A stretch of 64,000 bases of DNA from a virus. The notes below the pieces were generated by a model. That model worked only from the letters and a program-made list of their open reading frames with translations. It made no database searches and was not told the origin of the DNA. Every line of letters starts with the position of its first letter. Within the stretch, counting starts at the first letter, position 1. The stretch covers positions 5,671-69,670 of IMG/VR virus record IMGVR_UViG_3300033052_000036. One strand, 5' to 3'. Made by a program: the position numbers and the translations under genes. Positions 5,562 to 63,710 of this stretch are shown here, piece after piece.

Positions 5562-5613
5562 ACCGTCCTGCGGTTAAAAGGAGCAAGGGATGAGATAACC
5601 ATCCTTAAATGAG

Positions 5614-5646
5614 AAAACCCCCCAGCTTGCCGGCTGGGGGGTTTTT
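5614..5646. terminator. Intrinsic terminator after parB, possibly bidirectional
   Basis: AAAA-CCCCCCAGC-ttgccg-GCTGGGGGG-TTTTT. Confidence 0.85.
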
Positions 5647-14400: not shown

Positions 14401-17400
14401 ATCCGGCCCTCGCGCTGCTCGATGTCCGACGGCTTCCACGTCACGTCGGCGTGATGCAGGGCCACGAGGCGCTTCTGCACGTTGGTGCCAGCGCCCATGC
14501 GCGGGGTCGAGCCGATCAGCACGCGCACGGTGCCATCGTTGACGGCATCGAACAGCGCTTTCTTCTGGGCGTCGTTCTGCGCCTCCTGCACGAACCGGAT
14601 CTCGTCGGCGGGAATGCCGCGCGCGATCAAGTTGTCCTTGATCTGCTGGTAGGCATTCCAGCCGCCGGCCTGGGCGTTGCGCAGTTCCTCCATTTCGTTC
14701 GGATCGAAGCGCTCCATCTTCTCGCTGACACGGCGCAGCTCGGCCTCGTCGTCCTCGACCACTGCCTTACGCTGGGCCGCGAGCAGGGCGTCGTATTCCT
14801 TGAGGATCGCGTCGTCGCCCTTGCTCTTGGGGACGGAGCGATCGAGGAAAATGAGCTGGGTGCCGCGATCGGCTTCCCACTTGTCATAGACCCGCTTGAC
14901 GTTGTCGGCGATGACATCGAGCTTGCCGCCCTTCTCGTCGCTCGGGCTCGATGGCTCGGCCGCGCGCACGTCGAGCGAGACCTTGCGGGCGCGGTCCATC
15001 AGGCGCAGTCGCGCCTTGTTCCGGTCGTAGGGATCCTTGATCTCGGGCAGGCCATCGAAGCCTTGCAGCACGTCCTCCAGCAGCGCGACTTGCGCCTTCG
15101 TCGGCTGGATCACGACGGACTGGCGATCGCCGCCCTTCACGCGCGGCAGCGGGAACTCGGCGCCGTCGTTGTCCTCGGCATAGGCCTTCTTGATGTCGTC
15201 GTTGTCGACCACGTCGGTGAAGCTGTAGTAGAGGTCCATCAGCGAGCGCATGTTCGACCACGTCCGGCCCAGGCGGTTCACTTCCTTGAGGCGGCCGGTC
15301 TCGTTCGGCTCCCAGCCGGCGTCGGTGCTGACGTACTGCGCGCGCCATGCGTCGAAGTGCTCCAGGCCCAGCTCGGCCAGTTCGCCGGCGGCCAGGAAGC
15401 GCATCATGTTGTACATTTCGACCGCGCTGTTCGAGATCGGCGTGCCGGTCATAAACGTGACCGTGCCCGTCGGGGTCTCGCGCAGCACGCGCACCTTGTT
15501 ATACAGGTCGAAGGCCTTTTGCGAGCCGGTTTTGTTGCCCATGCCCTTCACGCCGGTGAGGCGCGAGCTGTAAAAGAGGTTCTTAAATTCGTGGGCCTCG
15601 TCTACGGTGAGATCGTCAATGCCCATCTGCTCGAACGTGAGCAAGCGGTCCTTGTTCTTGTCGCCTTGAACCTTCTCCATGCGCGCGGTGATGCGGTCGA
15701 CCAGACGCTCGGCCTCTTTCACGCCGAACGGCTTGCGGAAGCCTCCGCCCTCGCCGTTGGCCTCCGCTTCTTCCTGGGCGTCGATCACGGCCTGCTGCGC
15801 GGCGTCCAGTTCGATTTGCAGGTAGCGTTCTTCGGTCTCGGGCGCGATGCCGATGAAGCCGAAAGACGAATGCGGGATGATCACGATGTCGAAGTCGCCG
15901 GTGGCGATCTTGGCGAACAGCTTGCGGCGGCGTTTCTTCTCGAAGTCCGCTTTGCCGGCGGCCAGGACTTTCGCGCCCGGATACAGGCGGTACACGTCGG
16001 CCGCGAATTGTTCGACCATATGATTCGGGACGATCACGGCCGGCTTCTTCGACAGGCCCATGCGGCGGCGCTCCATGGCGCGCGCGATCGCGGTGAAGGT
16101 CTTGCCGGCGCCGACGGTGTGATCGATCAGCATGAAGCGCTCGGCGATGCCGCGCCAGATCGCATTCTTCTGGTGGCGACGCATGCTGATCACGGCGTCC
16201 GGCACTTTGCCCGGGAGGGTCAGGTGCGAGCCGTCGTGCTGGCGGGCGACGCGGGTATTGAATTTCTCGTTGAACAGGTCGACCAGCTTCTTACGGCGCT
16301 CGCCGTCCTTGAATACCCAATCGTTCCATTCGTTCCTGATCGCCTTGGCCTTGAGCAGAGCCAGGGCGGTGCGCTCGGCATCGACGTGGGTTTTCCCGTC
16401 CATGTCGCGGTACGTCACCTTGATCTGGGCGCTATTGAGCATGTCCGAGACCAGTTCGGCCGGCGAATAGCCGTCCGAGCCCCATTCCTCCATCTTCTCG
16501 CGCGTGGTCGGGCCGGCGTTGACGCTGAACGAGTTGGTCAGGGCCGAGAAGGCCACGCGCGCCGGCGAGCCAGTGACGTGCTCGACAAAGTCGGCGTACA
16601 CGGTCGGCGGGATCCAGGCCGAGCCCAGCAGGGCGGTGACGGCATCGGCGCCCCACGGTTCCGGCTGCACTTCTTCCAGGGCGGCGACGTTCTTGGGCAT
16701 GCGCGCAGCGCGGGCGGCGTTCAGCTTGCGCTTGACCTGTCCGGTCAGGTAGTTGCTGCGGGTCTCCCACTGGCCGGTTTCCGGGTCCTTGAACAGCAGC
16801 GGGCGCTCGTCGGCCTCGATCTCCTGCTCGATGTCCGCCATCGACTTGCCCAGCAGCGAAGCGATGCGCTCCAGATCCACGCGGCCGATCTCGGCCATGT
16901 TGATCGCGATCGCGTCGGCCATCGAGCCGGCCGAGGTCGGCGCCTCGTAAGGGACGATGACGCGGCCGGACAGGATCGGGGCAGGCTGGGCCGATGCCGG
17001 GCGCACCTTCTCCTTGCTGCGGGCGGCCTTGGCCGGGGTGATCGCCGGGCGGTAGCCGAATTCGAGCGCTTGCACGAGCGCGCCGTCCGGCATGCCCGAC
17101 ACGAGCGACGAGTTGGCCGGTTCCGAGATATAGCCGTGCGCCATCACAAAGGCGCCGTAGGCGCCGGCCAGAAGCGATCGGTTATCCTCGATCGCCGAGT
17201 CCGCGGCGTTCTCGCTTTCCAGTACCAACTGCTCCTTGAGGTGGTCGCGGAGCTTCACGAGCTTGGTCAGGCGCTCGTGGCGGCCGGCGCCCAGCAGCAT
17301 CGTTGCCGGGATGTCGGCCTCGTTCTCGAACACCTTGCGCTCGTACACGTTCAGCTTCGTGGGCTTGTCGCCCTTCATCTGCTTGACCGGGTTGCCCTTC

Positions 17401-20400
17401 TCGTCCAGCTTGACCTCGACGGTGTACCACTTGCCGTCGGCGCCCAGGTAGAGCGAGTCGGACCATGGCGAGGTCGGGGTCAGGGTGCGCTTGGTCAGCT
17501 CGTAGCCGCCTTCCGGGGTCTCGCGCTCGATGACCTGCTCCAGCACGTCGCCGGCTTCAAGGCGGATCGCGCCGTTCTCGTGGCCGGCCAGGGCGATGCG
17601 CAGGGAATTGCTCATGTCCTCGAAGCGGGCCTTCGAGCGATCGATCCATACCTGATCCTGGGGCGTGCCCTCGGGGAGCGTGGCGATCGCGGCCGCGAGG
17701 CGCGCGGCAAGGTTCTCGCCCTTGTCCAGTCGCACGGTGATGTCGTTCCCGTGCTTCATCGAGCCCGAGCGCTCCAGCACGCCCATGATCATTTCCGGGT
17801 GCGCGCGGAAGTAGGTGTTGACCGTCATCGGGTCGCCGCCCAGCGGATCCGGCACAGTGGTGGTTTTCACCCAATCCGGCACGAGCGCGGCGAGGCGCTG
17901 ACGCTCGAATTCCTTCTCGCGGTCCTTGAGCGGCTTGGTGCGCGCGGCCTCAAATGCCGCTTCCATTTCCTGTTCTTCGAGCGCGGAGCGGCGCTTGAGG
18001 AAAAGAATGTCGGTGACGACTTCGGTACGTGCGTTCTCCTTGAAAGCGGTGTCCGGCAGGCGGATCGCGCCGATCAGCTCAGCCTTCTTCGCCAGCATCG
18101 CGCGCGAGCTGGTGTCGACCTTGTCCATCAGGTAGCGGGAAACGACTTGGATCTGCAAACCGCCGGCGCGCAGCGCGTCGAGGGAGGCCAGGAAGAACTG
18201 GTTGTGGATCGAGTGGCCGTTCAGCTCGGGCTTGAACTGGAAGCGCAGCGATTGCTCGCCGAAGGGCGGGTTGCCGATAGCCAGGTCAAACGCGCCGTCC
18301 GGCAGCGGGACCTTCTGGAAACCACTGTGCAGCACGGTCTCCTGCGGGTAGAGCAGGGCGGCGATGCGCGCGGTCAGGCTGTCGTACTCGACGCCGATGA
18401 ACTTGGTATTGCCTTGCAGGTCGAACGGGATCAGGCCCAGGAAGTTGCCGGCGCCCATGGACGATTCCAGCGCGAGACCGCCACGGAAGCCCAGGCGGCG
18501 CGCGGCGTCCCACATGCCGCTGACGATGGTTTGCGAGGTGTAGTGCGAGTCGAGCGTCGATCGACGGGCGAGCGCGTATTCCTTCGGGGTCAGCAGGTCG
18601 CGCAGCTCGGCGCCGCGCTTGGCCCATGCGTCCTTGAACTGGCCGGTCTCCGGGCTCGGGAAGGCGCTGGCGAGGCCGCCCCAGCCCACATAGCGGGCCA
18701 TGGTGGCTTGTTCTTCGGCGGTCGCGCGGCGGTTGGCCGCCTCGACTGCCTTCATGGTGCGGATCGCGGCAAGGTTGTCGTTGAACTTCTCGACCTCGCC
18801 GCCTTGGCCGAGGCGCACGTCCTCGGTGATGCGGAAGTTGACGGCCGGGATCGCCGGCGCGGCCGGGACCGCTACTCGTGCCCCCGCATCCTCTCCTGAT
18901 ACTCGGCTTCCATTTCGGCCAGCTCGGCCTCCTGCTCGTCGTCCTCGTCCGGTGGTTCCGGCGTCAGCAGGATGTGCGCCTTCAACGCCACTTCCAGCGC
19001 TTCGTGCTCCCGATACCCGTGATGCGTCACCAGATCCGAGATCTGCGCGATCGCCAGCGCGGCCGCCGCCTGCGTCGCCTCGGTCAGCTCGCCCGCCGCT
19101 TTCAGCTCCGCCGTCTTGGCCGGTAGCCACTTCTCCCAATGCGCGCGCGCCTGCGCCGCGAGTGTTGCCTTGTCCATTGTTGTCTTTCGTGCTTGCGTTC
19201 GTGTCAAGTTTAGCGGAATTCTCCGGGCGTGCAACGCCCACGGCATCCATGATTTTGCCGGCGAGTTCCTGGGCGCTCAGCGTCGGCTCCAGCCAGAGGT
19301 TTTCACTGCCGCCGTAGGGGTCGCCCAGGCCGGTTGTGCGCATCATCAGCGTGATTCCGGCCGGCGACGCGGCGCGGCGCGTGCCTTCGGCGCCGATCTT
19401 GACGTAGATCCCGCGCCCGGCGGCCGGGCTCGACATCATCAGCGAGACATCGCCCGACACGCCCGGGCCGGCCGGGTTCGCGCTGACTGCCTTCTTGAGC
19501 TGCTTGCCGGCGCGGTCGCGCGCGGTCTCGAAGCCGGCTTCTTCCAGCGTGGCGGCCACTGCCTTGAGATACTTCTGCACGTCCTTGAGGAATGCGTCTT
19601 TCACGCCGCCCTCGATGTCGTCGCCCGGGTTGCCCGGGAATTCGGTGGTCTGGGCGTAGCCGTCGATCGCGTCGACGCCGTAATCGAGGCGCAGGGTCGG
19701 ATTGGCCGGCGCCTTGGCCTTCTTCGGCGCCGGCGCGGCCTCGGCCGGCTTCGGGTTGGCGGCCGCTTGCGCATCCTGGTCCTTCCAGTAGGCGGCGATC
19801 TTGCCCCGGAACTCCCGGCCCATGTTCTCCCACGTCGAAAACTTGGCCTGCGCGGCCTCGTCCTGATTCACGCCGGTGCCGGCGCGGTAGAGCACGCTTT
19901 CGCGCTCGTTGAACGGCATCGCCGTCCAGCGTTCGCCGGCGGCCTCGTCGGCGAGCTGCTCGGCGGTCTTTTCCGGCGCGGCCGGCATCCAGGCGCGGTT
20001 GACGCGCTGGCCCTTGGTGTTGGTGTACCACGCGCCCGTGAAATGGTCCTCGTTGAGCGCGGCGTGCATGAGGCGGCGCTCGTCGGGCGTCATTTCCTCC
20101 CAGGCCTTCCCGACGATCGGATCGTCGCTGGCGCGCTGGACGCGGCCCATGATGGCGCGCTTGAAGCCCGCGCTCGACCGCTTCCATTCTTCGGCCGCTT
20201 CCTTGGCGGTGTAGGTCTTGAGGTCGCCGGCCGGGATCCACGCGGCGCGCTCGCGCTGCGGCGCAAGCGGATCGTTGGCGTCGGCTTCCTGCTTCGCAAA
20301 GAGCTGGGCGGCCTCGCGCACGTTGTCGCGCGCCCAGGTGGCCCGGGCCTTGATGTTGGCCGGCTTGCCGTCTTTCAGGCGGAACGAACCCATGGAATCG

Positions 20401-20996
20401 TCGCCGACATATACGGTGAACTCGTCGCGGCGCGCGGTCTCGATCACGCGCGCCGACTCGCCGGACTTCAACGTGTATTCGCCGCGGCGCGCGGTCTCGC
20501 TCGTGACTTCGTCGCTCGCGTTGGCCTTGGCCTGCTGCAAGCGGTAGCGCGGCTCCTTCTCGGTCCCGATGTTTTCCACCACATTTTCCGCGATCAGCTT
20601 GGAGAGCAGGCTTTCTACGGCGGCTTCCTCTACGGTCGTGCCGGGCTTGTCCGGGTTTCCGATGATCCCGGCGATCCTTGACAGGGTTAGCGTGCCGCCG
20701 TAGTTCTGCGGATCGAGCGTAAATAGGACCTTGTCGTGCAGGTATTGCTCGGTCAGCAGGGACGGGACGGCAGGGGCCTTCTTCGGGCCGCCCTGGGCTT
20801 CCCATGCGGAGCGCACGGCCTTGATGATGCTGCGCTCCTCCATTTCGGCGAGCTGGATGCGATCGCGCACGGCGCGGATCATGGCGGCCTCGTGCGACAT
20901 GCCGCCTTTTTCGTACTGCGCCGCGACATCGCGGATCTCCTGGGTAGGGAGTTGGCCGGTCAGCCCGAGATCGAGCATGCAGGAGTTAAAGGACAA
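8478..20996 (-). CDS. Giant DarB-like polyvalent protein (4172 aa): N6-adenine MTase, SNF2/SF2 helicase, JAB/RadC, ADP-ribosyltransferase-like and PLxRFG C-terminal region
   Basis: LESSMGAGNF (~18441-18470), GNPPF (~18261-18275), DHTVGAGKT (~16100), DEAH (15591-15602), QREGRIIRQG (~14400), HNHPSGDPSPSIED (~12700), IVYHGS..WFSTNP..VYLSIQNP (~11750-11945), GYAPLSRFG (~10503-10529). Confidence 0.92.
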   Translation of the reverse strand: MSFNSCMLDLGLTGQLPTQEIRDVAAQYEKGGMSHEAAMIRAVRDRIQLAEMEERSIIKAVRSAWEAQGGPKKAPAVPSLLTEQYLHDKVLFTLDPQNYGGTLTLSRIAGIIGNPDKPGTTVEEAAVESLLSKLIAENVVENIGTEKEPRYRLQQAKANASDEVTSETARRGEYTLKSGESARVIETARRDEFTVYVGDDSMGSFRLKDGKPANIKARATWARDNVREAAQLFAKQEADANDPLAPQRERAAWIPAGDLKTYTAKEAAEEWKRSSAGFKRAIMGRVQRASDDPIVGKAWEEMTPDERRLMHAALNEDHFTGAWYTNTKGQRVNRAWMPAAPEKTAEQLADEAAGERWTAMPFNERESVLYRAGTGVNQDEAAQAKFSTWENMGREFRGKIAAYWKDQDAQAAANPKPAEAAPAPKKAKAPANPTLRLDYGVDAIDGYAQTTEFPGNPGDDIEGGVKDAFLKDVQKYLKAVAATLEEAGFETARDRAGKQLKKAVSANPAGPGVSGDVSLMMSSPAAGRGIYVKIGAEGTRRAASPAGITLMMRTTGLGDPYGGSENLWLEPTLSAQELAGKIMDAVGVARPENSAKLDTNASTKDNNGQGNTRGAGARALGEVATGQDGGAESGGRADRGDAGGGRAGDRADLGSGDASRVSGARSAGSGVEGAHPADAGTTGRGRRAGGRAGRNGSRVSGEDAGARVAVPAAPAIPAVNFRITEDVRLGQGGEVEKFNDNLAAIRTMKAVEAANRRATAEEQATMARYVGWGGLASAFPSPETGQFKDAWAKRGAELRDLLTPKEYALARRSTLDSHYTSQTIVSGMWDAARRLGFRGGLALESSMGAGNFLGLIPFDLQGNTKFIGVEYDSLTARIAALLYPQETVLHSGFQKVPLPDGAFDLAIGNPPFGEQSLRFQFKPELNGHSIHNQFFLASLDALRAGGLQIQVVSRYLMDKVDTSSRAMLAKKAELIGAIRLPDTAFKENARTEVVTDILFLKRRSALEEQEMEAAFEAARTKPLKDREKEFERQRLAALVPDWVKTTTVPDPLGGDPMTVNTYFRAHPEMIMGVLERSGSMKHGNDITVRLDKGENLAARLAAAIATLPEGTPQDQVWIDRSKARFEDMSNSLRIALAGHENGAIRLEAGDVLEQVIERETPEGGYELTKRTLTPTSPWSDSLYLGADGKWYTVEVKLDEKGNPVKQMKGDKPTKLNVYERKVFENEADIPATMLLGAGRHERLTKLVKLRDHLKEQLVLESENAADSAIEDNRSLLAGAYGAFVMAHGYISEPANSSLVSGMPDGALVQALEFGYRPAITPAKAARSKEKVRPASAQPAPILSGRVIVPYEAPTSAGSMADAIAINMAEIGRVDLERIASLLGKSMADIEQEIEADERPLLFKDPETGQWETRSNYLTGQVKRKLNAARAARMPKNVAALEEVQPEPWGADAVTALLGSAWIPPTVYADFVEHVTGSPARVAFSALTNSFSVNAGPTTREKMEEWGSDGYSPAELVSDMLNSAQIKVTYRDMDGKTHVDAERTALALLKAKAIRNEWNDWVFKDGERRKKLVDLFNEKFNTRVARQHDGSHLTLPGKVPDAVISMRRHQKNAIWRGIAERFMLIDHTVGAGKTFTAIARAMERRRMGLSKKPAVIVPNHMVEQFAADVYRLYPGAKVLAAGKADFEKKRRRKLFAKIATGDFDIVIIPHSSFGFIGIAPETEERYLQIELDAAQQAVIDAQEEAEANGEGGGFRKPFGVKEAERLVDRITARMEKVQGDKNKDRLLTFEQMGIDDLTVDEAHEFKNLFYSSRLTGVKGMGNKTGSQKAFDLYNKVRVLRETPTGTVTFMTGTPISNSAVEMYNMMRFLAAGELAELGLEHFDAWRAQYVSTDAGWEPNETGRLKEVNRLGRTWSNMRSLMDLYYSFTDVVDNDDIKKAYAEDNDGAEFPLPRVKGGDRQSVVIQPTKAQVALLEDVLQGFDGLPEIKDPYDRNKARLRLMDRARKVSLDVRAAEPSSPSDEKGGKLDVIADNVKRVYDKWEADRGTQLIFLDRSVPKSKGDDAILKEYDALLAAQRKAVVEDDEAELRRVSEKMERFDPNEMEELRNAQAGGWNAYQQIKDNLIARGIPADEIRFVQEAQNDAQKKALFDAVNDGTVRVLIGSTPRMGAGTNVQKRLVALHHADVTWKPSDIEQREGRIIRQGNSLLDKYGIGNFEVEILAYATERTIDAKMWSLNASKLKTINAIRKYDGAFSMDFEDEDSVSMAELAALASGDPLLLERVQLMSEIDKLELLKRQHSRREWGITSQIEDAERDIERLPLRIAAAQEDHAAAVAGAEEMEASRFGRTVTVEGTTYTDGEAARKAVVEAYKAQGGEDEGAKISISVGKRRLTSLDGALGAVSSAMGDEQTFSMFVNGAEYIARTDAAREIAELAKDKSVGLEKGEAVTVDLGTFRGLKLSATFERFDSGGYQTSLAVLRPDGTTMASGETKWREKWDYSTSAMRSAVEDLDRVMNPDSFQYRAEDMKRRLARAHEILPDLRARKGGGFPQQDELEAKNKRLEEVIRLLSEGPATPARSIALRVNPLRNVDGSYRRQAPALNVMQPEQGYGYNDPYENVQSRPGTNEAQREAGRAAVDDLSRRVGAHHLRERGDGNSGARGTVLGSRLLANFVAGKPNQLIGQVAATPRDLAALAQVYRDPRFETFRIFYMKGDKIVGEAGYTSRLPSAAAIPSGWEGSVKQDMARFGADGYYILHNHPSGDPSPSIEDQDMTVRFSQAIPGLRAHVVIDHDRYATIDQAGTYGVISAPWLNGVDFTDQPEREHKLLDTLVTDPAGVAGIGKALQIPQGHASLVMLDSKSSVQLLVDVPMGALTDMSPLGILKIKALVRRMARETGSGGLRFIVLPDGVDTTQFAPLIEQAVFKDVVSADGKSARELGVPELENDYLRGAHRIHDVRESGSTYRGAERRATDRTIEIDGARRPITNSKGKTIADDFMKQLAFYRWFKDSKVTDEQGRPLIVYHGSIVRDSERAPGMGDIQQFDRLFTTKFRAHSVDTMGNWFSTNPGEGGAQMYAGRGQGSVIYPVYLSIQNPHETTFRLLQRRARLLANGEDDGRKLGQAEVDAYRKWLKDMGKDGIKIVHDEYDETGSTEFRDQTAWITLEPEQIKSATGNGGGFDPGSPLIVGSREGAYTVGGIAGALAGAANSAANVRLPAGYMVGDLFNQSGKVSWWHKTIGTMDNLARRAPLFAPVYEAVQKFLGDVSRYAVLAADKAPTLLPHLDSIKDILGKNRKKPLTAADTKAIAAPIFEGTLIWARDAHGNPVKIQQLEEEAERLTIEQKAEILLQKGVITDEQNIAWLASPLDFYDATIERRFTESQLKPGVVWTNAELRSMFDLSDAQIAMYREFRAATDASLTNLSLSEMVKLGGKDSAGMLEQAVEAGGLMAGAELLRDHFIELAQSDPDKETMHLDTASRIMDVADRAQDLMDRGYAPLSRFGKHTVYVQQANEDGEMEQVYFGMFETQFEASRMARQMREGHPGAQVLQGTVSDEAYKLFAGVSPETIELFGSMVGLDTQADAKSTEVYQTYLKLARSNRSAMKRMIHRKGIAGFNEDAGRVLANFIYSNARLTAGNANLGKIDEAITAIPKQEGELTDAAMELRAHIRDPQGGGHMLGGLMFAQFLGGSVASALVNMTQPFTMTLPFLSQWGGIGKAGARLAGAIRDAGKEQTGDAALDAALKWATEEGIVAPQEVHYLQAQAAGKGALQSGDGTKVGDARATLNNAIAKVSLGWGKLFAMAELANRRVTFIAAYRTAVEQGMADPARFAQEAVTQTQGTYNSGNKPRWARSTIGGLALTFKQYSIAYVELLTRMLNAGEPGSPERAAGRRAALYMIAVLFLMGGADGLPFEQDLEDLIDGILQRLGYNFSTKREKQEFLTEVLGEGGADFALKGISSLPGMPVDVSGRFGMGNLIPATGLLTKKESYTRDIGELAGPAGDLATRAFKATGKALGGDIDGAALEMSPVAIRNAAKGLEMGSSGAYLDARGYKVNDVSATEAGMKILGFQPNSTADIQDAKGQALNMISQTRMRSQEIAEHWAQGIASNKPEMVAEARAWRDDWNSKNPETRINVNMAAVLRRVKSMRQDALRRTSMTAPKALKQSVRAELSETRD
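12947..13153 (-). CDS. Candidate nested 68-aa gene in an alternative frame of the giant gene, possibly leaderless
   Basis: TATAAT (13166-13161) lies exactly 7 nt before the ATG. The host frame here is a low-complexity R/G linker; the nested frame reads STIFPDGSGHIIYANGVTAILE. Confidence 0.45.
   Translation of the reverse strand: MKTSNPDPAPTRLSEKPAVLRSTIFPDGSGHIIYANGVTAILEREAPYLVADCSPTSSPASPTSSSGK
18872..19177 (-). CDS. Nested 101-aa gene (TnpV-like by pattern) in an alternative frame of the giant gene
   Basis: MDKATLAAQARAHWEKWLPAKTAELKAAGEL...EALEVALKAHILLTPEP reads as an ordered helical protein, while the host frame is a G/R/A-rich disordered linker. Confidence 0.7.
   Translation of the reverse strand: MDKATLAAQARAHWEKWLPAKTAELKAAGELTEATQAAAALAIAQISDLVTHHGYREHEALEVALKAHILLTPEPPDEDDEQEAELAEMEAEYQERMRGHE
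19207..19234 (-). promoter_or_regulatory. Candidate internal sigma70 promoter for the nested 101-aa gene
   Basis: TTGCAC (19234-19229), 16-bp spacer, TAAACT (19212-19207), 30 nt upstream of ATG 19177. Confidence 0.45.
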
Positions 20997-26708: not shown

Positions 26709-29700
26709 TCAACCTCCCATGCACTTGAGCATGTTGCGCAAGTTCTTGATGTCGCTGCGCACCGAGGCAAGGGCCTTGTCGGCCTGGATCTCGTGCGTTT
26801 CCCATCGGCTGTTTTCGCCGTCCTCGACGTAAAGCTCGTGCGGGACCTTCACCTTCTTGTAGAAGGCGAGGGGGATGTCGCTGCCGTCGTCGTAGTCCGG
26901 GTCCACGGGCTCGATCGGCTCGACGGTCTCGGCGTCGCGGGCGCGCTGCTTGAGCGGGCTGATTGGCTCGCCGGGCTCCGATCTCTGGTCGTCGCGCACC
27001 ACGCGGGGCATGCGCGGGGCGTCGGCGATGTTCGACTGCTGGATCTTCTTCATCGCCTCCTTGCGCTTGACCTTCTTCGAGGTCATCGAGCGCACGCGGT
27101 TCGCATCGGCCGACACATTGCCGTCGTAGCCGGCGGCGTTGATCGCGTCGATGCGCGGCTGCAAGCGGTCGTCCGCCAGGGCGCCGAGGATGTGTACGCC
27201 ATGGATGCTGTCGCCGTGCTTGCGCAGCAGGTCGGTAAGTTCCTCGTTCGATACCGCCTCGGCCTGCGACGGGATCCCGATGATCGGCGAAATGCCGTCG
27301 GGGATGCCCAGGTTGCGCATCATCTGCTCGTAGGCCTCGGTCAGCGTCAGCTCGCCGCCTTGAAGCGGGATGATCGCCTGCAAGCCGAACAAGTTGATGT
27401 CCTGGGCGTATTTCTCGACCAGATCCAGCGAGGCGGCCTGATCGCCGACGATGTCCGGCATCACGAGGAACATGCGGCCCATCGCCATGCCGTCGCTCGC
27501 CACGCTCAGCGCGCGTTGCAGTTCTTCGTAGCGGGCCATGACGGTGTCATGGTCGACCACTTCCGGCGCCGCGGCCTCGCGGTTTTCCTTCGCCGCCGCT
27601 TCGCTCTCGCGCATGTTCGCCATGAACACCGAGAAGGCGCCCGAATCCACGAACAGGCGCGCATCCGGGGTGTCGGCGAGCTGCTGGGCGATCTTCGGGA
27701 TCGACGGCGCGGACAGCTCGCGCACCGAGATCCCGACGTTCTTCCCGGCGCCGAACAGGCGCGTGAAGTCGCCCGGGCGCGTCATGCCCGACACGAAGCC
27801 GAGCGGCTGGTCCGGCGTGCTGTATACGCCCGGCTTGAAATTGCCGTCTGGGTCGGTCGGGAGACCGGCGTAGTCGTAGATCTGGGCCATGGCGCGCGCC
27901 TGCTCGGCCGGATCCTCGACGCGGCCCTCTGGCAGTACCAGCTCGTCGGCGACGGCGCGATCGCCGCCTTGACGCTCCGCTACCGCCTCGATCAGTGCAT
28001 TGCGGGCTTCTTCGTAGTCGTAGTTGCCATAGTCGTACTCGATCAGCTCATGGATCTCGTCGGCCGTGAGCCCGGCCTTGAGCGCTTCCAGCACGGCGCC
28101 CGATGCTTCCGGGTACTGCGTCGTCAAGCGGCGCTCGGCCGGCATGTCGATGTAGTTGTTCGCCATGAAGAAGGCGTAGGCGAAGCCCTCGGGGGTCTCG
28201 CTGCGCGCGTTCTTGGTCTCGATCGAGCTGCCGCCGTACTGCGAGTGCATCTTGCTTCCCAGGGTCGGGAACACATTCGCGCTCGGAAGCTCGCCGTTGA
28301 ACTGCCCCCAGATCATCGTGCGCTTGGTGTACGGGTCGCCGAAGTGGTGCGGCTGGAAGCTCAGGCGCGGATCCGGCAGGCCGGTAAGGTTGGTCAGGCG
28401 GCCAACCGGGTTTTCCAGTGCCCAGACGGCCGGGCGGAAATACTCGATCGTGGCGGCCGCCTTGTGCACCAGGGCGACAGACTGCTCGGTGCGGCCGTCC
28501 TCGTCTTTCGCGAGGAAGTGCTTGGCGCCGCTCGATGCGAAGTCCGTGCACGGCGTCGCGGCCAGGATGCAGTACACGTCCGACAGGTCGTAGTTCTCGG
28601 TGAAGTATTCCACCGAGAAGTCAAACACGTCCTGGCCGGTCTGGATGTCGAACGTGAGCACGTTGTAGCCGGCGTCGCGCCATGGCTGACTCCATTCGCC
28701 GGTGAGGTCGAACAGGGACAGCACGGTGCGCTGGGAGTTCTCGGCGCGGTGCTCGCGGCCTTGGCGCAGGGCGTGCTCTTTCCACTCGGCGATGCGGGCC
28801 TCGGCCTGCTCCGGGGTCAGTTCTTCACCCTGCACGCGCTTGTCCATCGACACATACTCTTTGCCCGGGTCGGCAAACAGCGCGGCCCACTCGTCGGTGA
28901 CGGTCTCGAAGGCCTGCTTGTCCATGGTCATCAGGACCTTGTCGCCGTCGACGGGCGCGGTGTCGGTGAGCGGCTGGCCGCGCGCGACGCCGATTTTCTG
29001 GCCGGTCAGGGCGCCGTTGTAGGCCTCGCTGGCCGCGTCGCTGCGCTTGGTCCACTCGCGCAGGGCGATGTGCGCCTCGCGCGGGGCGTCCAGTCGCAGC
29101 TTGCGTTTCTTGCCGGATCCGGTGAACCACGCCTTGAACTCGCCCTCGACCAACTGCTCCCAGGCCTCATTGACGGCGCGGACCTCGTCGGCGGCCGCCT
29201 TGAACTCCGGGCTCGTGAACTGCTCGGTTTTCGGGCCGGTGCCGTCCATACGGGCGTGCTCGGGCGCTTGGCTGTCGCCGGCGTCGTCGTCCGCTGCCTT
29301 TTTGGCCTTCTTGCCCTTGGTGGCCTTGGCGGTGTCCGCGCGGGCCATGTCCACGAGCATGTTTTCGAGCCCGGAATCTTCGCCCGCCTCGGCGGCCTGC
29401 TCTTGCGGCTGCTGCTTGGCCTGCGCCTTCCGGTCCCCGGCCATGCGCTCGGCTTCCCGCGCGCGAACCTGGGCGGCGAGATCGGCGTCACCTTCGGCCA
29501 GCTTGCCCTCGTCGGCGATGCGCTGGAGATTGGTGTCCGCGCGCTTACCCAGCTCGATCAACGGCACGTTGATCGCCAGCTTGCCATGCAGATCGTAGTT
29601 GTCGATCCGGTAGCCATATTCCGGCGCTGCATAGATGCGCACGCTCGCAGTATCGCCGTCGATCGCCTCGACCACGCCCGGGAGCATCTGGGTATAGGCG

Positions 29701-32700
29701 TTCTTCTGCCCGCCCTCGATGTCCGCCCAGAGCGGCATGCTCGTGACCATGCCCACTTTCCAGTGGTCGCGCGCCATGGCCCGCTGCTGCTCCGCCCATG
29801 CGGCCGCTTTCGCCTTCTCGTCCAGATTGCGCTTCTGGATTTCCTTCTCGATCTTCGCCGCGCGCGGGGTGTCCGCAAGCACGGTGCGGGCCTGCAAGAG
29901 TTGATCGTCGGTCATGTCCTTGACCGTCATCTTGTTCAGGTCGATCTTGGACAGGGTCGGCGCCGGCGGCGCCTCGGCCGGTGCCGGCGGCGCTTCCGCC
30001 TCGGTCTGGGCCGGCGCGGGCGCGGCCTCCTGCGTGGCGAGCATGTGCGCCTCGACTTGGCGATAGGCGGCAAGGGTGCTCTCGGCGTCGGCGATCTTTT
30101 TGTCGTACACCCAGGCGTTGCCGGCAGCCTTGGCTTCTTCCTGCAATCGCTTGAGGTGAGTGACGCGGGCCTCGGCCTCGCTGATCCGCTTCGCCATCGA
30201 GCCAGTGCCGGCCGATTTCTGCTCGATCGCCGATCCGTCAACCTGCGATTCCTGCTGCTCGGCGGCTTTGTCAACCTGGGCGGCCGGCGCCGGGGCTGCG
30301 GCCGGCTGCGCCGGCGCCGCTACATAGCCCAGCACGGTATCAGCCGAAAGCGCGGCGATCGCGTCCTCGGTGTCGGTGCCGTCGTGATACTCGGCGATCG
30401 CGTTGTAGGCGGCCTTCCACTGGCGCGCGCTGATCTTGTCGACGTGCGGAGCGGTCTTATCGTTGCCGCGCATGGCCTTGGCGGCCGCGCTGGTCGACGC
30501 GGAGAACGAGCGGAAGCCCTTGCGGACCAGCAGCTCGATCACCTTGGACAGCGCCGGCAGGAGGTCGGCGGCGGTGTGCTGCTGGCCGGTGGCGTTCAGC
30601 TTGGCGCCGAACATGTCGCCCAGCACGTCGCCCAGGTGGCCGAGCGCGTCCTGCAATTCGGCGTCCAGCGCGTCCGGCTCCGGGCTCGCGGCCGGTTCTG
30701 GGGTCGCGGCCGGGCGGAAGTCCTCGACCTGGGCGCCGGCGATGCCAGCTTGCGCGATCGGCTTCTTCGTCTTGCCGCTCTCCAACCAAGCCTTGAGGCC
30801 GGCCACGTCGGTAGTGACGATGCGATCGCCACCCTTCCAATCGGCGTCGTAGTTGCTGCTGTAGGCGGCGCGCGCCTGATCGACGGTGTCGAACCCGATC
30901 AGCACCTTATGCTCATCGAACTTGCCGCTGGCCGGGTCGATCTGGTCGACCACGAACACGGCTTCGCTCTCCAGGTTCTCGCCGATGAACACGTCGACCG
31001 GGTCGCCATCGGCGCCCACGGTGCCCAGGATGTCGCCGTAGTGGTGCTGCATCGTGGTTTCCCACGGCGTACCATCGGGCGCGACGCCACGGCGCACGGA
31101 TCCGGTCGGGTTCTCGATCGAGATCTCCAGCCCTCGCACGCGGACGTGCCCCTTCTTATAGTTGCCGGCCTCCTTCTGGGCCTGCGTGGGCTCTGGGCGG
31201 TCGTTCTGCGGGCTGGTGGCGGCCTCGTGCGCGGCCTTGTTCAGCTCGAAGCGCGCCTTTGCGGCCGCGAGCGCGTCAGCGTCGAGCCAATCGTTAATCT
31301 GGTTCGGGTAGACGCCGTTTTTCTGCTGGGTGCCGCGCGTGGTGCTCGACAGGTGCGCGAAGATCCTGCCATCGCGCTCGGCGCCGGTGCTCAGGATGTG
31401 CCACGTATCGCCGTGACGCTCGATCGTCGGCAGATCGAGCGCCTTCGGGGTCGCGTTGGCGGCTGGAGCGGGTTGCGCGGCCGGTGCGGCCGGCGTGGCC
31501 GGCTTCGGCGCGGGCTCCACCAGTCCGAAGTCGTGCAGCGTCATCCCCATCTTGTCCATCATCGGATGGAGGATCTCGACCGGCTTCTCGCCCAGGAGGA
31601 CGGCGCCGATCGTGTCCGCGATGATCTCGTTCGGCTTGGCCGCGTGCCGGCGGATCTTCTCGTTCGCATGGGACCACACAGCCGGGCGGTACTGCTTCGA
31701 TGCCGCAATCCATTCGTCCCAATTGCTGATCCAGCGCAGCATTTCCGACTTCGGGAAGCCCTTGAAGCCGACGCCGCGCTTCGCCATGATCGCGTGGCCC
31801 AGCTCGTGCGCGAATACATGCTCAGGCGTGACGGCGCCTTCTACCTGCTGATCTTCGGCTGGGATCTCGACTGCGCCCCCGGTGCTGATATAACCGCCGT
31901 TCACTTCCCGAATGGGGATGCCCAGGCGTGCGGCGATTACCTTCAAGCGCTCGCGCACCGACGCCTCTACAGGGCGCGACTGGTCGGCCGAGGCCTCCGG
32001 CGCCGCTGGAATATTTTCAGGAATATTCTGCGGTTCGTTTTGTGGTTCGGCCGGCGCCGGCGCGGTGGCCTGCGGCTCGCCCTGGGCCATGCGCTCCAGA
32101 TAGTAGGCCTTCTGGGCCGCGCTCAGCTTGAACAGCTTGCTCGAACCCTTCTTGTGCAGCACGGATCCGGTCGGGGTCTTGAGGCGCATGCCGGCCGCGA
32201 TCGCGGCGTCGACGGCGGCCGTATTGACTTCGCCGGTTGGTGCCGGCGCGGCCGCGCGCTCGGGAACCGCGTCGACCAGCTCGTTCGGGGTGGCCGGGAT
32301 CGGCGCGGTAGCCTCGGCGATCGCGTCGAGATCCGCATCCGTCGGCTGGGTGTGCTTGAAGCCGTAGCCGGCCAGGGCGCGCGAAAACGCGGCCTGCTTG
32401 TCCTCGGCCGGGATCGACTCGTCCGCCAGCACGCGCTGGAGGGTGGACGTGCGCAGCGCCGCGGTGCCGGCGTTGATCGCGACGTGGTCCTCGTCGTTCA
32501 GGCTCGGGAAAGTGTAGCCCTCGGCCTCCAGCGCTTGCTGGAAGGCGCGCTTCTTGCCGCGCGCCGGGATCGAGGTGTCGGCCAGGATGCGATCGCGCAG
32601 CGCGGCCCGGTTGGCTGCGGCGCGGCTGATCATGTCGCGCTCGATGCGCGCGTTCGTTTCGGCCAGCAGATCGCGCTCGGCCTGCTCGGCGGCCGCGCGC

Positions 32701-34490
32701 TGCTGCGCCTCGTCCTCGGCGAGCATGCGCGCGATCTCGGCGTCCTCCTGGCCGGCCGCCGGCGCGGTTCCTTCGGCGAACAGGTCGCCCGGCTTCGGCC
32801 AGCCGGTGCGCGCCATGACGGCCTCGCGCAGCCGGCCGGCGCGGTTATAGCCCACGTTCAGGTGTTGTTGCAGCGCGCGGATCTGGTTGCCCATGTCCAT
32901 GTCCGCGAAGCCCGGGGTCTGGAACATGTATTGCTGGGCCGCGTCGGTGTGCGGGTCGACCTCGCCGGCGATCGGCGCTTGCGCCGCGCCCTGCTGCATC
33001 TGCTGGCTGGTGGCGGCGGCCTGGGCGGCGGCTTCGTCGGCCAGGAGTTGCTGGTATTCGGCCTGCTGGTCGGGCGGGATCGCGACGCGCTTCTTGCGCT
33101 CGGCGATCAGCGCTTGGTACTCGGTGCGTTCTTCCGGGGTCGGGCGGCGCGGCGCCACGCCCGGGATCACGGTCGTGGATCCGTCCGGGTTGTTGATCTT
33201 CTGCGGCTCGGTGCCATGCCCGATCGCCAGCAGCTCGGCAATGCGCGCATCGATCTCGGCGAGGGATGGCGCGGCCGGTGCTGCCGGCGCTGCGGGTGCG
33301 GCCGGCGCCGGCGCGGCTGGTGCAGCGGCCGGCGGGGTGCCGATCGCTGCGGCCGCTGCTTGGCCGGCGTTCGCTGCCTGCGAGAGCGGGCCGGTATTCG
33401 GGAGCTGGACGGGCTGCGGCGCCGGCTTCTGGAGCGCACCCATGGCGCCGCCCATGGCTGCGCCGGTCACGAGGCCCATGCCGGCGGCGTTGCCCACGCC
33501 GGCGCTCAGATCGTCCTCGCCCATGGCGGCATTCGTAAATACCTGCTCCTGGGCGGACTGCGGCATTTCTTCCAGCACGCCCTCGCTGAGCGCTTGCTTG
33601 CCCACGCGAGCAGCCATGCCGCCACGGGCGCCGGTCGAGGCCGCGCCGGTGGCGATCTCGGTAGCGGCGTCGCCCATCAGCTTGCCGGCGCCCAGGCCGA
33701 TCGCGGCCGTGCCGAGGCCGGCGCCGATCGCTGGGAGCGCGTAGTCCGAATACTCGCGGCCGGCCGCCTGCGCGCGATCGGCGATGCCGCCGGCGGTTTG
33801 CGCGCCTTCGGTGGCCGCGCCGATGCCGACGAGCGTAGTCCCGGCCTTCTCGACGGCCGCTTGAGCGGCTTTCGCGCCGGCGGGGGTCTTGAGCGCTGCT
33901 TGCGCGGCCTTCGCGCCGGCGAGCCCGCGTGCGGCCGCGATGCCCTCGGGGGTTGCAAGAGCGGCCTTCGCCGCGATGCGCTGGGCGGCCGCGCGCGCGA
34001 CGCCCATGCCGCCGAGCATGCCCGGGGCCGACTGCGCGACGGCGCCGACGATCGAGCGCGGGTTCGCCAGTGCTGCGCCGACGGTGTCGGTGAAGCCCTT
34101 GGCCTCGGCTACCTTCGCATCGGATGCCTTCTGACTGTCGCTCAGGTACTCGCCCAGGAATTGATTCGTGGCCTCCGGGTCATAGCCCAGGTGCTCGCGC
34201 ATCGCTTCGCCGGCCTTGCCGCCAGTCGCGAGACTTGCGACGCCGACGGCGGCCGCGCCAAGGTCGACCACGCCTTGCGCGCCCTTGATGGCAAGGTCGC
34301 CAGCGGTGCGCAGCACGCCGGCGGACTGTTCCGCTTCTGGTGCCGCCGGCGGCTTATAGCCCAAGCTGGCCGCAAGCTGGCCCTTGTCCATTTCCGGGTA
34401 GTACAGCTTGTGCACCGCGTCGACAAACTGCGCATCGTCCAGGGATGCCAGATTGGGGAGCTTCTTTCGTGCGTCTGCAAATGCAGTCAT
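26709..34490 (-). CDS. Giant polyvalent internal virion protein (2593 aa): ejection-protein N-terminus, zincin peptidase, inorganic pyrophosphatase-like, C5-cytosine MTase and TGT/DpdA-like domains
   Basis: HELGH (~31794-31808); QKEAGNYKKGH..HYGDILGTVGADGDPVDVF..FDEHK (~30760-31200); SLFDLTG..ATPCTDF..LENPVG (~28130-28740); FVDSGAFS, MPDIVGD, HILG, SADAN (~27070-27790). Confidence 0.9.
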   Translation of the reverse strand: MTAFADARKKLPNLASLDDAQFVDAVHKLYYPEMDKGQLAASLGYKPPAAPEAEQSAGVLRTAGDLAIKGAQGVVDLGAAAVGVASLATGGKAGEAMREHLGYDPEATNQFLGEYLSDSQKASDAKVAEAKGFTDTVGAALANPRSIVGAVAQSAPGMLGGMGVARAAAQRIAAKAALATPEGIAAARGLAGAKAAQAALKTPAGAKAAQAAVEKAGTTLVGIGAATEGAQTAGGIADRAQAAGREYSDYALPAIGAGLGTAAIGLGAGKLMGDAATEIATGAASTGARGGMAARVGKQALSEGVLEEMPQSAQEQVFTNAAMGEDDLSAGVGNAAGMGLVTGAAMGGAMGALQKPAPQPVQLPNTGPLSQAANAGQAAAAAIGTPPAAAPAAPAPAAPAAPAAPAAPSLAEIDARIAELLAIGHGTEPQKINNPDGSTTVIPGVAPRRPTPEERTEYQALIAERKKRVAIPPDQQAEYQQLLADEAAAQAAATSQQMQQGAAQAPIAGEVDPHTDAAQQYMFQTPGFADMDMGNQIRALQQHLNVGYNRAGRLREAVMARTGWPKPGDLFAEGTAPAAGQEDAEIARMLAEDEAQQRAAAEQAERDLLAETNARIERDMISRAAANRAALRDRILADTSIPARGKKRAFQQALEAEGYTFPSLNDEDHVAINAGTAALRTSTLQRVLADESIPAEDKQAAFSRALAGYGFKHTQPTDADLDAIAEATAPIPATPNELVDAVPERAAAPAPTGEVNTAAVDAAIAAGMRLKTPTGSVLHKKGSSKLFKLSAAQKAYYLERMAQGEPQATAPAPAEPQNEPQNIPENIPAAPEASADQSRPVEASVRERLKVIAARLGIPIREVNGGYISTGGAVEIPAEDQQVEGAVTPEHVFAHELGHAIMAKRGVGFKGFPKSEMLRWISNWDEWIAASKQYRPAVWSHANEKIRRHAAKPNEIIADTIGAVLLGEKPVEILHPMMDKMGMTLHDFGLVEPAPKPATPAAPAAQPAPAANATPKALDLPTIERHGDTWHILSTGAERDGRIFAHLSSTTRGTQQKNGVYPNQINDWLDADALAAAKARFELNKAAHEAATSPQNDRPEPTQAQKEAGNYKKGHVRVRGLEISIENPTGSVRRGVAPDGTPWETTMQHHYGDILGTVGADGDPVDVFIGENLESEAVFVVDQIDPASGKFDEHKVLIGFDTVDQARAAYSSNYDADWKGGDRIVTTDVAGLKAWLESGKTKKPIAQAGIAGAQVEDFRPAATPEPAASPEPDALDAELQDALGHLGDVLGDMFGAKLNATGQQHTAADLLPALSKVIELLVRKGFRSFSASTSAAAKAMRGNDKTAPHVDKISARQWKAAYNAIAEYHDGTDTEDAIAALSADTVLGYVAAPAQPAAAPAPAAQVDKAAEQQESQVDGSAIEQKSAGTGSMAKRISEAEARVTHLKRLQEEAKAAGNAWVYDKKIADAESTLAAYRQVEAHMLATQEAAPAPAQTEAEAPPAPAEAPPAPTLSKIDLNKMTVKDMTDDQLLQARTVLADTPRAAKIEKEIQKRNLDEKAKAAAWAEQQRAMARDHWKVGMVTSMPLWADIEGGQKNAYTQMLPGVVEAIDGDTASVRIYAAPEYGYRIDNYDLHGKLAINVPLIELGKRADTNLQRIADEGKLAEGDADLAAQVRAREAERMAGDRKAQAKQQPQEQAAEAGEDSGLENMLVDMARADTAKATKGKKAKKAADDDAGDSQAPEHARMDGTGPKTEQFTSPEFKAAADEVRAVNEAWEQLVEGEFKAWFTGSGKKRKLRLDAPREAHIALREWTKRSDAASEAYNGALTGQKIGVARGQPLTDTAPVDGDKVLMTMDKQAFETVTDEWAALFADPGKEYVSMDKRVQGEELTPEQAEARIAEWKEHALRQGREHRAENSQRTVLSLFDLTGEWSQPWRDAGYNVLTFDIQTGQDVFDFSVEYFTENYDLSDVYCILAATPCTDFASSGAKHFLAKDEDGRTEQSVALVHKAAATIEYFRPAVWALENPVGRLTNLTGLPDPRLSFQPHHFGDPYTKRTMIWGQFNGELPSANVFPTLGSKMHSQYGGSSIETKNARSETPEGFAYAFFMANNYIDMPAERRLTTQYPEASGAVLEALKAGLTADEIHELIEYDYGNYDYEEARNALIEAVAERQGGDRAVADELVLPEGRVEDPAEQARAMAQIYDYAGLPTDPDGNFKPGVYSTPDQPLGFVSGMTRPGDFTRLFGAGKNVGISVRELSAPSIPKIAQQLADTPDARLFVDSGAFSVFMANMRESEAAAKENREAAAPEVVDHDTVMARYEELQRALSVASDGMAMGRMFLVMPDIVGDQAASLDLVEKYAQDINLFGLQAIIPLQGGELTLTEAYEQMMRNLGIPDGISPIIGIPSQAEAVSNEELTDLLRKHGDSIHGVHILGALADDRLQPRIDAINAAGYDGNVSADANRVRSMTSKKVKRKEAMKKIQQSNIADAPRMPRVVRDDQRSEPGEPISPLKQRARDAETVEPIEPVDPDYDDGSDIPLAFYKKVKVPHELYVEDGENSRWETHEIQADKALASVRSDIKNLRNMLKCMGG

Positions 34491-62362: not shown

Positions 62363-62839
62363 TCAGCGGTGAAGGGTTGCGTCGATCTCGATGCGGAGAC
62401 CGACAAGGTGTAGGGCCTCGCCCTCATACAAGCGGCTCGGGGTGAACTCGTAGACAACTTTCCGGCGCTCGTCCAGCACGCGGACATAGATCTCGTCGCC
62501 CTGGCCGCGATAGATATGGATCTGGTGGCCGGTCAGGGTCACGGGATAGCGGTCCCCGTGCGCCGGCGCCGGCGGGGTTCCCGGCGTCACGATCGGCTCG
62601 GGCAGGCCCAGGGCCGGCCAGCCGGTCGCGAACAGGTCAATGTAGGTCGAGGTGAAGATCCGGTGGATGCCATTGCCGACGACGAAGGCGGCGAAGATCG
62701 CGAAGATGGCGTAGCCCCAAGGCGCGGCGCCGAGGCGGTCCATCAGCAGCCAGATCGTGCCCAGCAGGGCAAGGCCCAGGCCGCCCGGGAGATTCTGGTA
62801 GGAGATCACGCGCTTCGGGATTTTGGTCGGCTTCTTCAT
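62363..62839 (-). CDS. Membrane protein with two TM helices and a soluble C-terminal domain
   Basis: AGGA RBS; LGLALLGTIWLLM and WGYAIFAIFAAFVVG. Confidence 0.7.
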   Translation of the reverse strand: MKKPTKIPKRVISYQNLPGGLGLALLGTIWLLMDRLGAAPWGYAIFAIFAAFVVGNGIHRIFTSTYIDLFATGWPALGLPEPIVTPGTPPAPAHGDRYPVTLTGHQIHIYRGQGDEIYVRVLDERRKVVYEFTPSRLYEGEALHLVGLRIEIDATLHR

Positions 62840-62855
62840 GGTCGGTCCTGAAATG

Positions 62856-62882
62856 AAAAAGCCCCGCACGAGGCGAGGCTTT
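62856..62882 (-). terminator. Intrinsic terminator closing the tRNA/ncRNA locus
   Basis: AGCCTCGC-ctcg-TGCGGGGCT-TTTT on the minus strand. Confidence 0.7.
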
Positions 62883-63059
62883 GTGAAATGGTGGCCCGAA
62901 GTTTTTACAGAACCTCGGCTAAACTGGCTGTCTTTCCATGCTGTCCACCTCATTGCCCATACGGCCTATCAAATCTCGCGCACAGAGGTTGCGACCTATG
63001 CCTTGCGTATGGCTGCCCGGGTATAGCCGCCGTTTCCCGGGATAGTGCTTCTTGCGGCC

Positions 63060-63109
63060 ACTCCTACGCTTTCGCGTTTCGCCCGGATCTCACGGGCTCG
63101 TCAGGGAGT
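63060..63109 (-). ncRNA. Type I hammerhead ribozyme
   Basis: Minus strand: ACUCC-CUGACGA-GCCCG(ugagauc)CGGGC-GAA-ACGC(gaaa)GCGU-A-GGAGU. All core nucleotides and three perfect stems are present; GUA cleavage triplet. Confidence 0.9.
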
Positions 63110-63116
63110 TATGGAT

Positions 63117-63188
63117 TGTGGTGGCCGGTGCTGATCTCCGACATGGTCACGTTGCAGACGCTGCGCTCAGCGGGCGCTTTCCACCACA
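63117..63188 (-). ncRNA. Candidate multibranch RNA with loop-loop pseudoknot
   Basis: 8-bp closing stem UGUGGUGG/CCACCACA; hairpin loops contain complementary GCUGA and UCAGC. Confidence 0.5.
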
Positions 63189-63516
63189 CAGCGCGACTCG
63201 TTCCCTTGAAAATACCGTGTTGAAGAAAGGATTTTCACGAACCGCGCTGTCTGGTGCCTGCTAGATTTGTTGATCGCGGCCGTGCGCACAAAGCAGCGCT
63301 TGCCATTCTCTTGATAAGGTACGGTCAACTACTTCCCAACTACCCTGCGGCGCTAAACCCGCAGTCCGTCCGCGATCAACAAGACAGGGCGGTCCCTCTC
63401 TTGTTGCGACTGGCGCGCGCCAATCGTCGGCGAACCCGCCAGCTCGTGTGTGGAACACCCGGCCGGCGGATCTCGTGGCGCCCAGACCTATCTGGAAAGT
63501 GGCGCCCGGTATTGCT

Positions 63517-63593
63517 TGGCGGGGGAAGCAGGGATCGAACCTGCGCATGCCGGAGTCAAATTCCGGTGCCTTAACCAACTTGGCGACTCCCCT
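63517..63593 (-). tRNA. tRNA-Gln (anticodon UUG), CCA encoded
   Basis: AGGGGAG/TTCCCCC acceptor with 1-72 mismatch, GCC-AAGTTGGTTAA-GGC D arm, CCGGA-ATTTGAC-TCCGG anticodon arm, GCAGG-TTCGATC-CCTGC T arm. Confidence 0.95.
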
Positions 63594-63710
63594 CCTTTCG
63601 CTAGACCCACTTTTGCAATCTATCGAATTGAGGCGAATTTTACGGGCAAGTGTGCACGTTTTCCCAGGACTAAAATGCGCAAGTTTTCTTGCACACTGAA
63701 AACATTCTAT

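Follow-up and report, generated by a model that had tools for sequence, protein, structure and literature searches.

Positions 63109-63060 on the minus strand of the window probably form an active type I hammerhead ribozyme, belonging to the population already known from phages and prophages; as a whole this is the best explanation of the site, with cleavage predicted from the established hammerhead mechanism. The window is the whole stretch of DNA that was analysed, 64,000 nucleotides long, and comprises bases 5671-69670 of a source record of 80,082 bp (65% G+C, complete by CheckV). The nearest cultured phage, judged by its large terminase, reaches an identity of at most 43%. Two very large minus-strand ORFs, 8478-20996 (4172 aa) and 26709-34490 (2593 aa), are further features of this 80-kb phage.

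Sequence and fold of the ribozyme

Read 5' to 3' on the minus strand, the element begins with ACUCC (63109-63105), followed by the core sequence CUGACGA (63104-63098), stem-loop II (63097-63081; GCCCG and CGGGC, loop UGAGAUC), the second part of the core GAA (63080-63078), stem-loop III (63077-63066; ACGC and GCGU, loop GAAA), A63065 in the position of H17 and finally GGAGU (63064-63060). ACUCC and GGAGU together form the 5 bp of stem I, which is open; stems II (5 bp) and III (4 bp) are closed by their loops, i.e. the topology is that of type I. All invariant positions are present (C3, U4, G5, A6, N7, G8 and A9; G12, A13 and A14; the pair A15.1-U16.1; A as H17), and the three stems consist exclusively of Watson-Crick pairs, with no mispair beside the core. 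RNAfold returns the three-way junction both as MFE and as centroid structure. The minus strand reads exactly as the earlier note had reported it, with a full-consensus core and perfect stems. By the established mechanism, in which the cut lies 3' of H17, self-cleavage is predicted at 63064-63065 on the minus strand, leaving a 2',3'-cyclic phosphate on A63065 and a 5'-OH on G63064.

The site is the only hammerhead in the 80,082-bp genome according to our descriptor scan, which covers types I, II and III. When the genome is shuffled 300 times with dinucleotides preserved, no motif reaches stems of 4/4/4 or longer, and those reaching at least 3/3/3 occur at a rate of 0.013 per genome. With one additional pair and a bulged base, the loop UGAGAUC of stem II can be read as a GNRA loop, a form that recurs in many members of the family described below. 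Fast cleavage at physiological Mg2+ requires stem I and loop II to make a tertiary contact, for which no complementary flank is found at the site.

Genomic context

All parts of the locus, i.e. tRNA, ribozyme, 3' RNA, terminator and downstream genes, are located on the minus strand. The first is a tRNA-Gln with the anticodon UUG (63593-63517), detected by ARAGORN and by Rfam RF00005 (52.3 bits) and kept in the closest IMG/VR relative (L002) as well as in a contig from the sequencing runs X2/X6. It is followed by a variable non-coding spacer (63516-63110), which is replaced or unalignable in the relatives, the ribozyme (63109-63060), and a conserved structured RNA domain 3' of the predicted cut (63064-62925), which is delimited by comparison with L002, X2/X6, a metagenome contig (X10) and a more distant locus (L107). 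An intrinsic terminator (62882-62853), composed of a 10-bp GC-rich stem and UUUUUCAUUU, closes this series; its hairpin occupies 62882-62858 and precedes the T tract, and it is identical in L002 and present in X10. The earlier note had placed a same-strand tRNA-Gln about 410 nt before the ribozyme and a terminator about 200 nt after it. The distance to the tRNA is 407 nt by ARAGORN, and the terminator begins 178 nt 3' of the ribozyme in the terminator scan, which detects no terminator-like site in the spacer between tRNA and ribozyme.

Directly past the 62858 terminator, an operon begins on the minus strand that continues to the small terminase (59459-58824) and the large terminase (58840-57296), both identified by PHROG matches. 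Its first ORF is located at 62839-62363, as indicated by the ORF list and the third-position GC profile. The ribozyme itself lies within a stretch of ~750 nt lacking any credible ORF. Two plus-strand ORFs extending over the site (62888-63223 and 63052-63264) were rejected on account of indels of 2 and 95 nt at the corresponding place in L002. A mini-ORF on the minus strand (AUG at 62960, MGNEVDSMERQPV) is probably non-coding, as relatives keep only its first 3-5 codons and the box that it covers pairs in a conserved helix.

Two small hairpins common to the window and L002 are retained in the spacer (63478-63110, minus strand). One follows the tRNA immediately (GGGCGCC..GGCGCC), the other is CUGCGG-GUUUAGCG-CCGCAG, with AUGCGG..CCGCAU in L002, a compensatory change. 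On the other side of the tRNA-Gln, the 100 nt upstream (63700-63594, minus strand) are well conserved in L002 and the X2/X6 contig and include the inverted repeat GUGUGCA..UGCACAC. This region is a likely promoter or operator region; a match to the sigma-70 consensus was not found in it.

Conservation in related phages

L002, a contig of 79.8 kb whose small terminase shares 89% amino-acid identity with that of the window, is the sole close one among the small-terminase relatives in IMG/VR; the other 79 loci lack a hammerhead at E <=0.01. As in the window, its tRNA-Gln is followed by a type I hammerhead. Core and stem-loop II of the L002 ribozyme are identical to those of the window, and the changes comprise an extra C-G pair in stem III, a loop III of GUGA for GAAA and a sixth pair in stem I.

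In isolates of organism A (runs X2-X9, two studies) a contig of 77.7 kb holds the segment 62946-63108 with 1 change. The ribozyme of the X2/X6 contig is identical to that of the window; its tRNA block differs by 14 changes and 5 gaps, and the spacer of ~406-407 nt is swapped for a different sequence of 357 nt. The surface metagenome contig X10 contains 62947-63110 with 7 changes, one of which gives loop III the sequence GCAA. GAAA, GUGA and GCAA, the three forms of this loop, are all GNRA loops, no change falls into the core, and no pair is broken. The order of tRNA and ribozyme is kept in three relatives. Four sequence variants (window, L002, X2/X6 and X10) underlie the conservation of the locus, part of which may therefore stem from recent shared ancestry or from exchange.

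Exact 22-30-mers of the 3' domain occur in the L002 contig only among IMG/VR and metagenomes, and in none of the genome representatives. A degenerate pattern of the 3' domain added L107 only, and blastn of the module against cultured phages returned nothing. None of the sequencing runs with the locus is on record as RNA; one contig from a run guessed to be RNA ends at 63060, 4 nt from the predicted cut, and is not counted as evidence.

Membership in a phage hammerhead family

At gathering cut-offs, Rfam reports the tRNA alone for the whole window. Hammerhead_1 (RF00163, type I) scores 13.8 bits against a cut-off of 34, and Hammerhead_3 (RF00008, type III), the best hammerhead match in E-value mode, 29.6 bits against 48.5. 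The RF00008 alignment pairs CUCC with an upstream GGAG, a non-conserved pairing, and has a poor stem III. The type III reading derived from it (63147-63071) includes three non-pairs in stem III and was rejected because its upstream strand is missing in L002. Ten related loci with ~25 clear phage type I hammerheads (L084 and L094 among them) likewise yield no Rfam match at gathering cut-offs. Since the same models miss these other phage type I hammerheads, the failure of Rfam at the window site is a problem of model coverage and no defect of the site.

Further members were searched for with the pattern CTGANGAGCCCG-N3-12-CGGGCGAAAC, which is present in 48 IMG/VR loci and in 42 loci of bacterial and archaeal genomes from many phyla. 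The viral loci contain 85 distinct type I hammerheads as judged by the descriptor, with a maximum of 12 per locus (L108) and variation in all three stems; 120 descriptor matches in 452 kb compare with 0 in shuffles. An alignment (A3) of 35 phage type I hammerheads, none with the stem II of the window, forms the basis of a covariance model (R1). Every cell of A3 pairs, as the descriptor itself demanded, and 10 of its 13 pairs are changed on both sides. R1 matches the window site with 48.9 bits (E 8.6e-12) over all model positions (1-56 of 56) and the L002 site with 58.6 bits. R1 gives no match in 707 kb of terminase-related control phage loci or on the chromosome of E. coli O157 Sakai. A weak R1 match at 3941-3989 of the window is ascribed to chance because the GAAA core is missing and the match lies inside an ORF.

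Given the R1 score, its E-value of ~1e-11 and the clean 707-kb control, it is well supported that the window site belongs to the type I hammerheads of phages. The search with hammerhead models suggested in the earlier note has a divided outcome: both Rfam models stay below their cut-offs, and our own phage model detects the site. The type I identity and the predicted cut after A63065, likewise put forward there, are strongly supported by the sequence, by the family model and by the structure-preserving variation in relatives.

Members of the family differ in their arrangement. L083, L084, L085, L094, L108 and L112 carry type I hammerheads in arrays of 5-12 with small genes in between; the array of L108 comprises 12 type I hammerheads in ~8 kb. 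One subfamily uses GGAG(G) as the 3' strand of stem I, with an AUG 7-9 nt later (L086:~5570-5640, minus strand; L088:1913-1990; L095, L096, L115, L118, L125 and L129). The ribosome-binding site of these members would therefore be paired prior to cleavage and situated at the 5' end of the product afterwards, and cutting might turn on the translation of the gene that follows. In many family members, among them those of L108, L112, L102, L104 and L092, loop II is complementary over 4-6 nt to a tail located 1-2 nt past stem I (e.g. loop II strands GGUGAC, UGAC and UGGC with the tails GUCACC, GUCA and GCCA), which corresponds to the pseudoknot type of tertiary contact that Perreault et al. 2011 (PMC3088659) described. 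The subfamily of the window, with the loop UGARAUY, does not possess this pseudoknot between loop II and 3' tail.

RNA domain downstream of the predicted cut

In a blastn comparison with L002, the block 63109-62928 displays 88% identity, the highest of the region; the small terminase gene region (59592-58806) reaches 79%, and the L002 spacer of 208 nt is mostly unalignable with that of the window. The conserved block opens exactly at stem I (63108-63110) in L002, X2/X6 and X10 and ends at ~62946-62928. Because the block starts at stem I and the spacer is replaced in relatives, the ribozyme is, as far as these alignments reach, conserved as one unit with the ~115-140 nt after the predicted cut and not with the RNA preceding it. 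The earlier note had recognised the identity of the ribozyme and that it does not trim the tRNA, but had missed this joint conservation with the 3' RNA.

A model of the 3' domain (R2) gives a weak match directly after the hammerhead of L107 (IMGVR_UViG_2928115317_000001). The same stretch is present in L171:6700-7100, from Pseudacidovorax sp. 1753 (NZ_JBEPKY010000002.1), and L107 is therefore probably a prophage of this betaproteobacterium. The layout recurs in L107, where a related domain follows the ribozyme and terminators lie ~600 nt downstream, so intrinsic terminators follow the unit in both lineages.

The consensus fold alignment of three sequences (A5; window, L002 and L107) contains four helices, in which 9 pairs are changed on both sides. 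Helix 1 is a 5'-terminal hairpin that re-uses the 3' strand of stem I. Helix 2 consists of CCCGGG/CCCGGG, with CCCCGG/CCGGGG in L002, and helix 3 is a long helix (ACCUC..GAGGU) holding the conserved AUGGGCAAUG box. Helix 4 is a terminal hairpin of the form GACA-stem-GGARAGAC, in the window GACA-stem-GGAAAGAC. In a fold of two sequences, the 5' end of the domain can instead form a pairing of 10 bp, with one compensatory change. The full 3' RNA of 210 nt folds no more stably than shuffles (z = -0.23). At E-values up to 10, the Rfam search of 62800-63700 assigns the 3' domain to no family of ribozymes or riboswitches and gives no HDV-like match.

A hairpin with (U/G)GACA, a stem of 4-5 bp and the loop GGARAGAC occurs in the window (62948-62925, minus strand) and in L002:5168-5195, and three times around the L107 unit (4366-4391, 4557-4582 and 4680-4705). 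It may be a putative protein-binding or boxB-like site. The TGACA before the terminal hairpin was also considered as a -35 box, which was not adopted as there is no common -10 element.

Proposed mechanism and alternative explanations

Minus-strand transcription would start from the conserved region upstream of the tRNA and proceed through tRNA, spacer, ribozyme and 3' domain, presumably as one RNA. The hammerhead would fold once GGAGU (63064-63060) has been made and would then cut after A63065. Owing to the type I topology, tRNA, spacer and nearly the whole ribozyme would remain on the 5' fragment, ending in a 2',3'-cyclic phosphate. The 3' fragment would start with 5'-OH-GGAGUGG; the 5-bp stem I would fall apart and its bases would refold into the 5'-terminal hairpin, rendering the cut irreversible and leaving a 5' end that should be a poor substrate for 5'-monophosphate-dependent decay. 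A 5' hairpin formed by the 3' product in this way is only modestly enriched across the family, with 30 cases among the 85 members against 18 expected. The 3' fragment would comprise the conserved structured RNA of ~140 nt and either end at the 62858 terminator (~205 nt) or read through into the terminase operon. We prefer the small RNA of ~205 nt ending at the terminator over a late-messenger leader as the product.

The most likely role of the predicted cleavage is to provide a defined 5'-OH end on a small structured RNA or leader, and not to trim the tRNA. The proposal of the earlier note that a hammerhead separates the modules of one non-coding RNA is in keeping with the anatomy of the locus (one strand, no terminator in between, order kept in relatives), with co-transcription and cleavage as its presumed part. 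More tentatively, we consider that the ribozyme and its ~140 nt could be one functional unit, namely a ribozyme-matured, terminator-ended small structured RNA of unrelated proteobacterial phages, situated near tRNA genes or ahead of late genes and controlling, for example, late transcription or a host process.

A rather unlikely alternative is processing of the late messenger, in which the 62858 terminator would be read through late and the hammerhead would detach the long late mRNA, with its five small ORFs, terminases and portal, from the precursor of the tRNA. This mRNA would gain a 5'-OH, hairpin-capped end, with the 3' domain as its leader, a role that Perreault et al. 2011 (PMC3088659) proposed and that accords with the position of the locus directly upstream of the minus-strand structural operon. 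A strong and fully conserved intrinsic terminator, however, lies between the ribozyme and the first ORF, and L107 too has terminators after the domain. The family at large points both ways: its hammerheads typically follow a stop codon and precede a ribosome-binding site, with the stop codon at stem I in 51 of 85 members, but their predicted cuts are ~10-25 nt away from the start codon, compared with 225 nt in the window.

Less probable still is a regulated ribozyme or switch, in which the 3' domain, or a factor binding to it, would control cleavage through helices that compete with stem I. GGAGU(G) is able to pair with ACUCC or else with a downstream CACU..CC or GCGGCUAUACC, both alternatives being accompanied by compensatory changes; ribozyme and domain are conserved as one block, and regulated cleavage of phage hammerheads was raised by Perreault et al. 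2011 (PMC3088659). Stem I is transcribed ahead of its competitors, though, and cleavage would therefore be favoured first; no ligand or protein partner is indicated, and no riboswitch family matches even at E-values up to 10.

An inactive look-alike, or a mobile-element remnant in decay that no longer serves a function, is very improbable: against the scores below the Rfam cut-offs, the short stem I, the single copy in the genome and the tertiary contact that was not found at the site stand an intact core, a chance expectation near zero, the E-value of ~1e-11 with an independent model, and relatives that vary only in ways keeping the structure. Least credible of all is a ribozyme for tRNA end processing, similar to the theta (HDV-like) ribozymes beside phage tRNAs, which the earlier note did not favour either, which is unlikely because the 407-nt spacer to the tRNA 3' end is replaced in relatives, and which is further at odds with conservation together with the following RNA, with the lack of a nearby tRNA in most family members and with a theta ribozyme paper (PMC10879173) that makes no mention of hammerheads, even though the site shares its strand with the tRNA-Gln, the order is kept in three relatives and the family members of L104, L116 and L124 are ~50-530 nt away from tRNAs.

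Comparison with known systems

Hammerheads of bacteria, prophages and phages have been described by de la Pena and Garcia-Robles 2010 and Perreault et al. 2011 (PMC3088659) and are reviewed in PMC6155905. In the 2011 survey, which reports hundreds of hammerheads from bacteria and prophages, type I matches types II and III in frequency; those of prophages often flank genes and cleave in vitro and in vivo (PMC3088659). Both the link to phages and the open function of bacterial hammerheads are restated in reviews (PMC6155905, PMC6765202).

The window site shares with the hammerheads of Perreault et al. the canonical core, the short stems, the phage context and the proposed cutting of a long phage transcript. 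With respect to the three criteria of these authors, it has no change in the core, no mispair adjacent to the core and no bulged short stems. In contrast to the clustered prophage hammerheads of the same study (Perreault et al. 2011), it is present as a single copy with non-coding flanks and does not flank an ORF. The usual layout of stop codon, ribozyme and ribosome-binding site is absent, and the ribozyme is instead fused to a structured RNA that ends at a terminator. With the theta (HDV-like) ribozymes (PMC10879173) the site has in common that a small ribozyme of the self-cleaving kind, here with predicted cutting, is located in a phage tRNA transcription unit; it differs from them by its hammerhead fold, by a distance of 407 nt from the tRNA in place of direct adjacency, and by not being conserved with the tRNA end. 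The site shares its catalytic core and three-way junction with RF00163 and RF00008, whose gathering cut-offs it nevertheless fails to reach.

The site is a well-supported new example of the phage hammerheads known since 2010-2011 and not an element of a novel kind; its sole unusual aspects are the 3' domain fused to it and the setting between tRNA and terminator. That the Rfam hammerhead models miss abundant phage type I hammerheads matters for annotation pipelines. The organism A isolates carry a nearly identical module on a phage-sized contig, so that a related phage seems to be available with cultured strains and experiments are feasible. Most known hammerheads of bacteria and phages are located between genes, where many explanations are possible. 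The combination of a ribozyme with a specific 3' RNA and a terminator suggests a concrete job for this one, which would be to make the 5' end of a defined small RNA.
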